A stretch of 64,000 nucleotides of DNA from Negaprion brevirostris (taxonomy: Eukaryota), in contig JARDVH010000140.1 in NCBI GenBank assembly GCA_030324005.1, forward strand, positions 6,171,160 to 6,235,159, in the 5' to 3' direction. Of this stretch, positions 322-51,568 are shown piece after piece. The translations under genes and the position numbers were made by a program. Position 1 is the stretch's first letter. Each line of letters opens with the position of its first letter. The notes under the pieces were generated by a model that was not told where the DNA came from, did not search any database, and saw only the letters and a program-made list of their open reading frames with translations.

Positions 322-480
322 GGTCAATGGTATATGGTTATCGAAGAAGTGAGTCAGTTTCACCGTTCACTCATACCCTTGCCAGTTTGGTCTTGGTACC
401 TGATTGGTAACAAAGAATCAGATGGTTTTGCAATTTGGACTTTCGGTATTCTGCTAGGTTTGTTCTACCTCATACTCAAG
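322..480 (+). CDS. RNFT1: RNFT1 internal coding exon (transmembrane region), GQWYMVIEEVSQFHRSLIPLPVWSWYLIGNKESDGFAIWTFGILLGLFYLILK
   Basis: ttcaaAG acceptor at 320-321, GTAAGA donor at 481, 159 nt phase 0. The peptide matches the vertebrate RNFT1 segment G.WYM..EE..Q..R...P.PVW..YLI...W..GILL.L.YLILK. The gene's 5' part lies upstream of the window. Confidence 0.95.
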
Positions 481-838
481 GTAAGAGGAAAATCTTAGCT
501 TTGTTACGATATGGCGCGTGGTAATTACTGGGTTAACCAAATCTCAAAGGGAAATTTGGTCAAGCCACCACAACTATTTCCAATTGTATCTTTATTCTGA
601 GGTTTGGTTTGTTTTGCCTGTCTGTTTTGTAGGGGCACAAATGAATCCCCAGTTAATGTCCACAGTTTTCATACAATTAATACACAGTTAACAAAAACAT
701 GTATTTCTATAATGTTTTTCACATCTTCAAAGTGTTTTATAACCCATGAAGTACAATTGTAATGTAGCTGTTGTTTGTTATGCAGGACCACAGCAGTATC
801 TCCCAATAAAAACAGGGCAATTTTGCCAGCAGTAATAA

Positions 839-1036
839 TAAAAGCAAATTACTGTGGCTGCTGGAATCTGAAACCAAAAGCGAAAATGCTGGAAAATCTC
901 AGCAGGTCTGGCAGCATCTGTAAGGAGAGAAAAGCTTTGACAAAGGGTCATCTGGACTCAATGTCAGCTCTTTTCTCCTCTTACAGATGCTGCCAGACCT
1001 GCTGAGATTTTCCAGCATTTTCTGTTTTGATTTCTC
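839..1036. mobile_element. Penelope-like family B element, fold-back pair with a degenerate hammerhead at 933-969
   Basis: Arms ~868-936 and ~966-1033 are reverse complements (aaatgctggaaaatctcagcaggtctggcagcatctgtaagg / cttacagatgctgccagacctgctgagattttccagcattt). Core reads agct-TTGACAA-a-GGGTC-atctg-GACTC-aatgtc-agct. Confidence 0.8.
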
Positions 1037-4559: not shown

Positions 4560-4700
4560 ATGATGTGAAATGTTGGAATTGGACAGGGGTGGGCACTGTA
4601 AAAAGTCTCTCAACACCAGGTTAAGAGTTTGTTTGGAATCACGAGCTTTCGGAGTGCTGCTCCTTCATCAGGTGAGTGGAGATTAGTTCGCAAACACGGC
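4560..4700 (-). mobile_element. Penelope-like family A terminal repeat
   Basis: Matches copies at 5.3, 19.2, 27.7-28.1, 55.5 and 62.6 kb. Confidence 0.8.
4639..4675 (-). ncRNA. Minimal type I hammerhead ribozyme (family A), intact core
   Basis: Minus strand: TCAC-CTGATGA-A-GGAG-cagca-CTCC-GAAA-GCTC^GTGA. Stem I TCAC/GTGA, stem II GGAG/CTCC, palindromic AGCT in place of stem III. Confidence 0.8.
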
Positions 4701-13517: not shown

Positions 13518-13752
13518 GAAATGCTGGAAAATCCCAGTAGGTCTGGCAGCATTTGTAAGGAGAGAAAAGAACTGACGTTTCAAGTCCAGATAACACTTTG
13601 TCAAAACCTTTGTCTGGAGCCCACTCAGCTTTGACAAAAGGTCATCTCGACTCGAAACTCGTTTCTCTTTTTACAGATGCCAGACCTGCTGAGATTTTCC
13701 AACATCTTCTGTTTTGGTTTCGGATTCTAGCATCTGCAGTAATTTGCTTTTA
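13518..13752. mobile_element. Penelope-like family B head-to-head pair with two U3-A8 hammerhead cores and a 13-bp flanking direct repeat
   Basis: Core on - at 13571-13608 (TTGACAA...GAAACGTC) and on + at 13627-13660 (agct-TTGACAA...GACTC-GAAAC). Flanks TGAAGGCAACGGG (13505-13517) and TGAAGGCAATGGG (13753-13765). Confidence 0.8.
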
Positions 13753-14472
13753 TGAAGGCAATGGGAATCAGGATTGATTGGAATCATACCTGGCACAAAA
13801 GAAGGTGGTTCCTTTGGGTCAATCATCTCAATTCCAGTACATCAGCTTAGAGACCTAGGCCCAACCATGTTCATGCCTGTAAAATCAATTTCAGCACCAT
13901 TCAGGACTTGCCAGGTACTGAAGCAGTTCATCTCCATACGCAGCAGGACCTGGACAATATTCAGGTTTGGGCTGATAAGTGGCAAGGAACATAATGCAGA
14001 GCAATGTCCATTTTCAACAAGAGATAATCTAACTATTCCCCTTCAACAAGTGGCATTACCATCTTGGAATCTCCCACTTGGGATTAAAATTGACTAGAAA
14101 CTGAACTGGACCAGCATTGTGGCTACAACAACAGCTCAGAGACTGGAAATTCTGCAGAGAGTGACTCACTTCCTGAGTCCCCAAAGTCTATTCACTATCT
14201 ACATGGCACAAATCAGGAGTGTGATGGAATACTCTCCATTTGTCTGGATACAAGTGCAGCTCCAACAACACAAGCAGCTCAACACCATCCAGGGCCAGAC
14301 AGTCCTCTTGGTCAGCATCCCACATTCAACATCCATTCTGTCCCATTATTAATGCACAGTATCAGCAGCATCTATAAGATGCACTGCAACAACTCACCAA
14401 GGCTGTTTCAACAGCACCTTTCAAACCTGTAATCTCTATCACTTTCAAGAGGCAGCAGATGTGTGGGAACAT

Positions 14473-22215: not shown

Positions 22216-23007
22216 NNNNNNNNNNNNNNNNNNNNNNNNNNNNNNNNNNNNNNNNNNNNNNNNNNNNNNNNNNNNNNNNNNNNNNNNNNNNNNNNNNNNN
22301 NNNNNNNNNNNNNNNCTCCAGGCACTTTCCTCAATTTTTGGAGAATTTCCTAAATCCACCACCAGCAGTAAAGTCTGTTTCAATGATTCTTCTTTCCCCC
22401 TGATCATGGCAGGATAAATCTCTGGAAATTCTAGAAGGCTGCAGAATATATCTCTTTCTCTAGAAATGTCTTCCTCCCACATCTAATTGTGGTGTTCACA
22501 AAGCCAAGCAGCCTTTTCTCTTGCAGACCACATAGAACTTCTACTGCTTATACTATGACGTTCCTTACTTTAGTGGTAGCCTGTAACCTGATCTCAACAA
22601 TGACTTTCTCTGTCTTCTTCAACGTGGCAACATGAAACTCGTTGACCTTGCATCCAAATGCTGGTTGGCCATTCCTGACTGCAATTCTCTTTCATTTCAA
22701 ATGTGAAATGGACAGTTTATAGCACAACTGTATGCAACTCAATATCTTCAACATTTTTCTTTTCCTGGGACATTGGGAGAGTAAGGCCTCATTTTTTGTG
22801 CAAACGATGGCAGGAATTCTCTATCTTCATTCAAGGCTGGAATTTTCCTCTTGAAAGTGAATGGAGTTTTGGCTGGAACACTAAATTTTCTGTTCTTGCT
22901 GGCAGCAGAAGAGACTGAAGAAGGTACCTGGCAAAGTACTGGGGAAGCTGTCCTCCGCTTTTCCTGCTGAAGCCAAAGCTTTGAAGCAAAATTGAAAATT
23001 CTGCCCA

Positions 23008-23080
23008 TTAACTCTGTTTCTTACTCCATTGATGCTGCCAGACCTGCTGAGATTTTCTTTTTCAAGCACTTTCTGTTTAT
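23008..23080 (+). mobile_element. Penelope-like family B copy starting at the cleavage position
   Basis: TT^AACTCTGTTTCTT...GATGCTGCCAGACCTGCTGAGATTTT. Confidence 0.65.
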
Positions 23081-24062: not shown

Positions 24063-24190
24063 ATAAAAACAAATTACTGTGATTGCTGGAATCTGAAACA
24101 AAAGCTGTAAATGCTGGATAATCTTAGCAGGTCTGACAGTACCTATGGAGAGAGAATGGAGCTAACGTTTTGAATCTGGATGACCCTTTG
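24063..24190 (-). mobile_element. Penelope-like family B copy, truncated inside the hammerhead core
   Basis: Minus: CAA-a-GGGTC-atcca-GATTC-AAAA-CGTT-AGCTCC... Confidence 0.75.
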
Positions 24191-24269
24191 AAATGCTAAC
24201 TATATTCTTGTTTTTTGTTGCTACTTTGCTCCCCAGTTCCCTAACTTCCGACTGCAGAACTACATGCCA

Positions 24270-26837: not shown

Positions 26838-27210
26838 TAGAATCATAGAAACCCTACAATGCAGAAGGAGGCCAATCGGCCCATCAAGACTGCACAGACA
26901 ACAATCCCACCTAGGCCTTACCTCCACTGGCCTATATGTTTACTTCACTAACAGGCCAAAGGGTCCGTTTCCCGTGCTATGTTGTTCTTTGTCCCTCTAA
27001 CCTACACATCTCATGACACTAAGGGTCAATTTAGCATGGTCAATCAACCTAGCCCGCACATCTTCGGATTGTGGGAGGAAACCGAAGCACCCGGAGGAAA
27101 CTCACGCAGACACAGGGAGAACGTGCAAACTCCACACAGCGACACAAGCCGGGAATTGAACCCAGGTCCTTGGAAGTTGTGACAGAGCAGTGCTAACCAC
27201 TGTGCCACCC
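26838..27210 (-). mobile_element. HE1/V-SINE-like element, CR1-type tail, with a small internal insertion
   Basis: TAGAATCATAGAA tail on +, V-core and A/B boxes. Confidence 0.85.
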
Positions 27211-27736: not shown

Positions 27737-28131
27737 AGCCATGATGTGGAGTTGCTGGCATTGGACTTGGGTATGCACAGTAAGTAGTCTCACAACACCA
27801 GATTAAAGGCCAACAGATTTGGCAGCACAAGCTTTCAGAGCTTTGCCCCTTCATCAGGTGAGTGGAGAGGTAGGTTTCACAAACACAGCATATACAGACA
27901 ACTGAATGGCTTGCTAAGCTTCTCAATAGTCCCTTGGGGAAGGAAATCTGCCGTCCTTACCTGGTTTCAACTGCTGCCTAGCAAGCCACTCAGTTGTATC
28001 AATTGCTACAAAGCCTCTGTCTACATATGCTGTTTGCGAAAGCTACCTCTCCACTCAATGAAGGAGCAGCACTCCAAAAGCTCATGATTCCAAATAAACT
28101 TGTTGGACTTTAACCTGGTGTTGAGATTATT
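27737..28131. mobile_element. Penelope-like family A head-to-head pair with a 17-bp flanking direct repeat
   Basis: Left arm on - (27737-27900), right arm on + (~28017-28137). Flanks TACTGTAGACGATGTGT (27720-27736) and TACTGTAGACAATGTGT (28132-28148). Confidence 0.8.
27826..27860 (-). ncRNA. Minimal hammerhead ribozyme (family A), core intact
   Basis: CAC-CTGATGA-A-GGGGC-aaa-GCTCT-GAAA-GCTT^GTG; stem II is held with G-U pairs. Confidence 0.7.
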
Positions 28132-50419: not shown

Positions 50420-51107
50420 CTAAAAATAAAAAAAATACAACCTTTAACAATGTTTTACCTCATTTGAAAGCTATGTGAGCGACTTCAGACTGTTTAAATT
50501 TCTAAACGTGTTTAAAAAAATGATCAGTTTCATGAAAGTGATGCTGTCCCATTTACAAAGTTCCAGGTTCAATTTTTGACAAAGTTTTCTGACACTTCAT
50601 TGAACCCAATGCTTTAACAGGGGCTGTGAACAAAATATACCCATCTTAACTGGATTCCCTCCATAGAGCAGAAGTCAGCTTACTAGGTCTGGGCAGTTCA
50701 AATATTTACATCGTCGGCTTAATTTGTGAAGGTGCTATTTCAGATTCTCTCTGAATTTGGTGAAATGCCATTCAGACCACCATTTCAATTCTATCCTCTG
50801 GTCACACTCAAAAAGAATCATTAACTTAATTTTAAAAAAATGAATTGACCCTTTGACTATTGTACTTTCAACTGGATCATATCTAGAAGGGTTAGTGGTT
50901 AAAGAGGGATGGAGAGAAGAAAATAAAGTAATAATATTCAAAAGCCCTTGTGATTCTTAGAGAAGGGGGACTAAGGTGAGCAACTGGAATTAAGGTACAG
51001 ATCAGCTATGGTCCAAATAAGTAACAGGATAGGCTGAATGATCCTCAGAGTAACAAAAGGAGGACTGAGGAAGGCACGGAATTCTCAGCTTTGAGACCCT
51101 ATACCAA

Positions 51108-51205
51108 CAAAAAAAGAAAATAGTGGAAAAATTCAGCAAGTCTGACAGCACCTGTGCAGAGAGAATAGACCTAACATCGAGTCTGGATGACCCTTTGTCA
51201 GAGTT
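51108..51205 (-). mobile_element. Penelope-like family B copy with a CTGACAA core
   Basis: Minus: aact-CTGACAA-a-GGGTC-atcca-GACTC-ga-tgtt-aggt... Confidence 0.7.
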
Positions 51206-51568
51206 GCTCAGCAAGCACAGGAGCACTATTTAATGCTATTTAAGACATGATGATAAACACTTCCAAATTTAGTGTGGTGTGGTATTTGGAACATTTAGCT
51301 CTGCTCTTAAGTAATTTGATCTAATTAATTACGTATGCCTGTGCTCAAATTCAAGCAATATGGAGATCTCAATACAGTTCAACAGATCAAAAAATCAGTG
51401 ACCATAGTTACTCCGTGGCTCACTTTTCCACCCAATGTTACACAGCATAGGACTGGAGAGGACTATATTAGCTGATCAAAATCTAAGGCCAGATCTCAGT
51501 GCCTACTTTATTCATCACACCTGTCAGTAACCATTTTTGCCAAGAATTTCCCATTATAAGCCAGCTTA

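Follow-up and report, generated by a model that had tools for sequence, protein, structure and literature searches.

Decayed Copies of a Penelope-Like Element Hammerhead with a U3-A8 Core in Negaprion brevirostris

Hammerhead Copies in the Window

The window, the whole stretch of 64,000 nucleotides of the Negaprion brevirostris genome that was analysed, contains damaged minimal type I hammerheads within fragments of a Penelope-like element (PLE; table 1). The first-pass annotation had placed copies with the core UUGACAA at 933-969 (+), 13571-13608 (-), and 13627-13660 (+), each with further damage, and all three positions were borne out. In the first copy, AGCT occupies 933-936, U3 is at 937, A8 is at 942, and stem II covers 945-959. 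The sequence after stem II reads AA-TGTC-AGCT, so that G12 and one A have been lost and C15.2 has become T. With G12 gone, this copy itself lacks a complete minimal-hammerhead core, which the subfamily-B master possesses. In the inverted copy U3 is at 13604, and the core and GAAACGTC are undamaged beside a damaged stem II; in the third copy U3 is at 13631, G10.1 has become A, and the cleavage site and stem III are missing. All three UUGACAA copies in the window are thus damaged, and from their sequences they are predicted to be inactive. The partial copies at 24.2 and 51.2 kb, which had been taken to support the same family, do exist, but they carry subfamily-C markers downstream.

Table 1. 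Penelope-like element fragments and hammerhead copies in the window
Feature	Position	Strand	Remarks
Damaged subfamily-B minimal type I hammerhead	933..969	+	Starts at element position +1
5'-truncated 3' pLTR fragment of Penelope-like element	933..1030	+	Runs from +1 as far as the short 3' end, which has no tail
Inverted pLTR fragment	838..934	-	Carries the ~38-nt tail; AG forms the joint with the direct arm
Inverted subfamily-B pLTR fragment	13519..13608	-	Undamaged core (UUGACAA) and GAAACGUC; mutations in stem II
Direct subfamily-B pLTR fragment with tail	13625..13753	+	Core is UUGACAA; deletion of stem III/cleavage site
Eroded copy with subfamily-C tail markers	24084..24197	-	Core unreadable
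Subfamily-C copy	51106..51206	-	Core CUGACAA, a CpG-decay product of the C master CUGACGA

The copy at 933 is the direct arm of a near-perfect palindrome (about 838-1030) made from two ends of one repeat, with a predicted RNA hairpin of -127 kcal/mol. The inverted junction at 931-937, in which the left arm stops just past the cut site and is followed by AG and then by +1, was also seen at an independent locus (L054). Weak miRNA-hairpin matches from Rfam in the window were due to the palindrome and were discarded. The Rfam covariance models gave no hammerhead match at E<=5 across the window, even for canonical copies of another repeat family (A). These family-A copies are CUGAUGA minimal hammerheads with TCAC in stem I, located at about 4640-4677 (-) and at 27825-27863 (-), and they are also common in the genomic loci that were fetched. 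Positions 22980-23078 (+) hold a further fragment of the PLE end family to which the B copies belong; it is older and eroded, with an unreadable core.

Other features were found in the window. Positions 322-480 (+) form an open stretch of 53 codons bordered by AG and GT, likely a coding exon, for which no match was found in Pfam or Atlas; if it is an exon, the palindrome would be intronic and is predicted to form a long hairpin in the pre-mRNA. The tRNA-like heads of a SINE-type repeat lie at 27141-27206 (-) and at about 2185-2215, with a weak mascRNA-menRNA match at 27.1 kb.

The Host Element

The subfamily-B hammerhead is part of the pLTR of an abundant PLE with a unit of about 3.2 kb. Proceeding upstream from hammerhead copies, a pyrimidine-rich 3' UTR is followed by a GIY-YIG endonuclease and then by RT. 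Pfam identified the RT as RVT_1 (E=2.6e-8) and the endonuclease as GIY-YIG (E=0.007, under the curated cut-off); the RT thumb region had HTH_animal neighbours at 0.94. Four further ORF pieces yielded one weak RVT_1 match only. The organization is that of EN+ PLEs: a single ORF in which RT precedes a C-terminal GIY-YIG, direct and inverted pLTR structures, 5' truncation, and an optional tail of 30-40 nt; every ORF seen was broken. According to the accessible text of PMC8557442, a CX2-5CxxC linker upstream of GIY-YIG marks the Neptune and Nematis clades of PLEs. A CX4CxxC linker was readable in 7 of 30 decayed copies (strict pattern), and judged by its sequence the B-carrying element has a linker of the Neptune/Nematis type and is a candidate member of these clades.

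The complete order of parts was seen at one locus (L162), with pLTR-ORF-pLTR across ~3.2 kb between two pLTR remnants, and the inverted 5' pLTR that is usual in PLEs was present at another (L107). At two more loci (L161 and L163), the upstream pLTR continues into the ORF, and the first ATG is ~185 nt past the hammerhead. Several pyrimidine-tract-AG motifs resembling 3' splice sites lie between hammerhead and ORF start in the pLTR/5' UTR of these two loci; introns are known in the 5' UTR of PLEs. The pairwise likeness of element copies was about 80%.

The 39-nt consensus proposed for family B had 123 exact matches in the 2.69-Gb genome, compared with 0 for the reversed-pattern control, and the motif is therefore not due to chance. 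The 23-nt tail word occurred 3625 times. Evenly spaced genome samples (L061-L100, 328 kb) contained 21 matches to the PLE end superfamily, or ~1 per 16 kb, the majority of them from subfamilies other than B. A non-LTR retrozyme, with tandem non-coding repeats and a separate non-autonomous master, was rejected, as no tandem array was found in the window. When 100 short and 74 long B copies were compared, every column majority was common to both. Thus, the short copies derive from the coding element by truncation, and a separate short non-autonomous master was ruled out.

Subfamilies and the 3-8 Pair

Copies were assigned to subfamilies by markers outside positions 3, 7, and 8, and the hand tallies covered the first 100 listed matches of each subfamily (of 1635 in B, 1198 in C, and 121 in D). 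We found that 89 of the 100 B matches listed were U-A, while C-A (5), U-G (2), C-G (0), and other combinations (4) were rare; at positions 7/8, TG was seen in 0/100. The 100 C matches listed were C-G (54), C-A (29), U-A (6), U-G (6), and other (5). Their positions 7/8 read CG in 19, TG in 37, CA in 32, and otherwise in 12, and the symmetry of TG and CA is the pattern of a decaying CpG. The D set also contained some B and C copies; among its 100 listed matches, 85 had C3, and AG was the commonest state at 7/8 (about 44). A script was also run over all loci in hand, with overlapping loci merged only if identical; it retained 266 of 454 matches covering both sites and returned U-A for 172 of 187 B copies, C-G for 25 and C-A for 17 of 53 C copies, and C-G for 5 of 10 D copies, with 16 unclassed.

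The masters are UUGACAA in B, CUGACGA in C, and CUGAAGA in D. U3-A8 is fixed in B and has no CpG-decay signature there, and the sisters C and D are C3-G8. The first-pass annotation was thus right to propose a distinct family with UUGACAA as its master core. It had also read CUGACAA at 51.2 kb as an uncompensated copy, and this does not hold: the core reflects neutral CpG decay of C, as in the 7/8 counts above. B is not itself a CpG-decayed TTGACGA, which was ruled out by the absence of TG and the rarity of CG (2/100) at positions 7/8 among the matches listed. One candidate for a separate intermediate subfamily (U17/A1.1 class, 208 matches) was also rejected, the 100 listed members being read by eye as a mixture of mutated B and C; other intermediates may exist.

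A tabulation of positions 3 and 8 by subfamily had been suggested as the check on their covariation. The pooled data did covary (p=6e-16), but within C (p=0.35) and within B (p=1.0) the two positions were independent, by Fisher tests that are phylogenetically confounded. Strong covariation between subfamilies and none within them points to one switch between masters. Since the covariation represents one change in the master element, the three UUGACAA cores of the window are pseudo-replicates. Selection in the master, which had been argued from them, is still probable; the use of three cores as three observations is not valid.

Tail divergence was 6.1% in B, 7.9% in C, and 12.5% in D (n=9); the age order rests on these samples, which are biased in that B and C were partly chosen on exact tail words. 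Two C3-G8 sisters together with the lowest tail divergence in B suggest that U3-A8 is likely the derived state. It would likely have had a single origin in two steps: the CpG at G8 was deaminated in a source copy, and C3 then changed to U. Among the 40 variants listed (of 92) in contigs of runs from other organisms, positions 3, 7, and 8 were absent.

Hammerhead Fold and Probable Selection on the Master

The hammerhead of subfamily B has a 4-bp stem I, a 5-bp stem II, and, as first described, a bare ACGU palindrome as stem III. The core of a minimal type I PLE hammerhead (CUGANGA...GAAA...UH or a covarying 3-8 pair) is present in the B master by way of U3-A8. The structural elements are also present: stems I and II, an unpaired base after A9, G10.1-C11.1, and a palindromic 15.2-16.2 without loop III. 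Stem II pairing is retained between subfamilies, as A-U in D and as G-U in B and C. In D, the 5' strand of stem I is AGCT in 8 of 15 copies and is opposite AACT, a C-A mismatch, so that stem I is not strictly kept. ViennaRNA gave -8.3 kcal/mol for the monomeric hammerhead fold against a minimum of -9.8 kcal/mol, and -14.9 kcal/mol for the double hammerhead of the dimer against -23.2 kcal/mol; thus, the hammerhead is not the predicted minimum in either case.

These energies bear on the idea that the main advantage of U3-A8 was to weaken an inhibitory misfold. A canonical core combined with C7 and C17 would be perfectly complementary to 15.2-1.2, and the 6-bp helix formed by the two would lock the core; the prediction for B with both positions reverted was -13.4 kcal/mol, compared with -9.8 for natural B and -8.3 for the hammerhead-compatible fold. 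However, this is a two-dimensional prediction for the monomer only, and a comparable misfold is predicted for natural C copies (-9.5 to -11.1 kcal/mol), yet C amplified. We regard relief of misfolding as a rather unlikely main cause; it is compatible with the explanation that we prefer and not exclusive of it.

The changes that separate B from its sisters also speak to selection. About nine changes over 135 nt are specific to B, and at conserved core positions they affect only 3 and 8; position 17 was also altered, from U to C, as the H rule allows. The chance that core changes fall only on 3 and 8 was 0.004 under uniform rates, a value that is too low because G8 lies in a hypermutable CpG, and that becomes ~ten-fold higher if this site mutates ten-fold faster. 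The B master had lost the CpG at 7-8 (CA in 167/184 copies) and the one in loop II (TG in 159/186). In contrast, two CpGs are kept in the B master although they decay freely in its copies, at 11.1-12, which includes G12 (CG 84, TG 29, and CA 55 of 176), and at 15.2-16.2 in stem III (CG 66, TG 33, and CA 68 of 182). Selection on the fold of the master appears likely, given that G12 and stem III retain their CpGs whereas those of G8 (with compensation) and loop II are gone. The compensated swap that became fixed in the core of a successful master, together with the retention of essential CpGs, is evolutionary evidence for a selected fold.

Copy Ends and Putative Transcription Start

The ends of B copies were read at the first 90 listed tail-word places, which gave 93 copies, 13 of them excluded because their ends abut assembly gaps; for C, the first 50 listed places gave 51 copies, of which 3 were excluded. 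The tail word maps downstream of the cut site (+35/+36). Among the B copies listed that were still at risk, 4 of 76 ended at +33..+38, 38 of 53 at -6..+7, and 2 of 15 at -7..-56, and 13 continued further. The C copies listed were alike, with 1 of 43 at-risk copies ending at the cut site and 20 of 23 at -6..+7. In the copies listed, then, neither B nor C had an excess of ends at the cut site, and the copy ends hold no genomic trace of cleavage.

The 5' ends cluster at the first base of the hammerhead, 30 nt downstream of a conserved TATA box. In 46 of 48 matches, 43 of them B-type and 3 C-type, a spacer of 22 nt separates the TATA box from AGCT, and in four D copies the TATA box was found at -31/-32, though their spacers differ. 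The 3' ends group at ~+96 and at +133-135. Loose ends at +1 recurred in contigs from three runs of other organisms, contigs of a kind that can show neither starts nor cleavage. RT stalling at the hairpin is an unlikely source of the 5' pile-up, since a stall would be expected at the 3' edge (+39) and not at +1. We infer from the pile-up at +1 below a TATA box that the transcript would start with the ribozyme and that the templates would be mostly uncut. Catalysis is compatible with these copy ends but not demonstrated by them, since cut RNA may simply be lost.

Proposed Explanation

We consider the motif to be the decayed minimal hammerhead of a subfamily-B PLE pLTR, in whose master U3-A8 likely preserved the 3-8 tertiary pair and, with it, a weak self-cleavage assisted by dimer formation or by protein. 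Taken on sequence evidence, this explanation has a probability of roughly 0.7. Transcription would start at the first base of AGCT, and the hammerhead would then form the first ~35 nt of the RNA. The RT of the element would prime internally ~100 or 135 nt downstream, as in the PAc element discussed below, and run to the RNA 5' end. Such priming would yield thousands of ~135-nt fragments, as well as inverted pairs such as 838-1030, and the mobilised templates would be mostly uncut RNA. A ribozyme at the putative 5' end would point to regulation of the transcript and not to the making of templates. A more far-reaching version, which we offer tentatively, is that the TATA-driven transcript opens with a hammerhead placed to cut off its own capped leader, and that B, rescued from the CpG loss of G8 by a compensating U3 that also breaks the core-locking misfold, stayed catalytically competent and out-amplified its C3-G8 sisters, only uncut RNA being copied back.

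It is improbable, in our judgment, that the B hammerhead was already non-functional, such that CpG decay changed G8 to A, C3 happened to become U, and amplification went on with cleavage dispensable. The exact complementarity of the changes at 3 and 8 argues against it, as do the remaining conserved core and stem positions, which are unchanged and include the two CpGs that decay in copies and persist in the master, and the same swap was reported independently in Schistosoma PLEs (available text of PMC4209133). Decay would nevertheless agree with a switch that was one event at a G8 within a CpG, with the lack of a 5'-end excess at the cut site, and with the stem I mismatch in D; moreover, hammerhead mutants leave PLE insertion in vitro unaffected (PMC11167929), and Naiad PLEs thrive without hammerheads. 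Constraint on the 39 nt as a promoter/initiator, a protein-binding site, or an upstream reading frame rather than for catalysis is very improbable, for although the motif is placed at the putative transcription start and a frame from the core is open through the pLTR with both changes silent, this frame has no ATG after +1 and differs from that of the main ORF, which begins ~185 nt downstream, and stem II pairing is maintained across subfamilies.

The preferred explanation, a selected U3-A8 hammerhead, is of interest because PLE hammerheads persist though they are poor cutters and cleavage is dispensable for insertion in vitro, and the swap in B bears on why. The variant itself is already known; the subfamily series, the CpG route, and the start-site map are added here. 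The first-pass annotation had read the core of the family correctly, and it overlooked both the membership in PLEs and the published U3-A8.

Comparison with Known Systems

Promoters differ among PLEs: in the accessible portions of the two papers, an Adineta pLTR has a TATA box and an initiator (PMC3846280), and the Penelope element of Drosophila has a TATA-less internal promoter (PMC2377424). The supplements of a preprint include one chondrichthyan genome (bioRxiv 10.64898/2026.07.22.740005), and further related literature comprises PMC6155905, PMC3884650, and PMC7151607. In the literature searched, which held few subscription papers or repeat databases, we found neither a vertebrate U3-A8 PLE family nor a report of copy ends mapping to the first base of a hammerhead.

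The closest system is that of Cervera and De la Pena (2014; PMC4209133), whose available text describes minimal hammerheads with U3-A8, about 1300 of them, in the PLEs of Schistosoma, along with a low in vitro activity of minimal PLE hammerheads. The Cercyon PLEs of Schistosoma mansoni share with B, in that text, U3-A8, an extra base between A9 and G10.1, G10.1-C11.1, a bare palindromic stem III, the location in the pLTR, numerous scattered and truncated copies, and closely spaced pairs on opposite strands. Unlike Cercyon, B has the core UUGACAA (N7=C), a large animal genome as host, and a Neptune/Nematis-type linker. In part 2 of 3 of the supplementary table of that paper, all vertebrate rows are C3-G8, and the supplement gave no match to "shark" or "Callorhinchus".

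Natural U3-A8 hammerheads were also reported by Perreault et al. (2011; PMC3088659), who, in the text available, cite activity in vitro, and their variants have the same 3-8 covariation as B. As a monomer the B motif has no stem III, and a partner is predicted to be necessary; the comparison with the examples of that paper is by description. U3-A8 in B is real and is a further instance of an already described hammerhead variant, with catalysis as a prediction.

The Poseidon element PAc of Anolis carolinensis (PMC11167929) primes RT internally and uses uncut RNA as the dominant template, and its insertion in vitro does not need cleavage. PAc resembles B in having a pLTR hammerhead and two 3' ends one 30-40-nt tail apart (~+96 and +133-135 in B), and uncut RNA would be the main template of B as well. 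The two differ in the 3-8 pair, C3-G8 in PAc and U3-A8 in B, and in the ORF, which begins within the hammerhead in PAc and ~185 nt past it in B; the CX2-5CxxC linker, present in the B element, is not a feature of Poseidon in the accessible text of PMC8557442.
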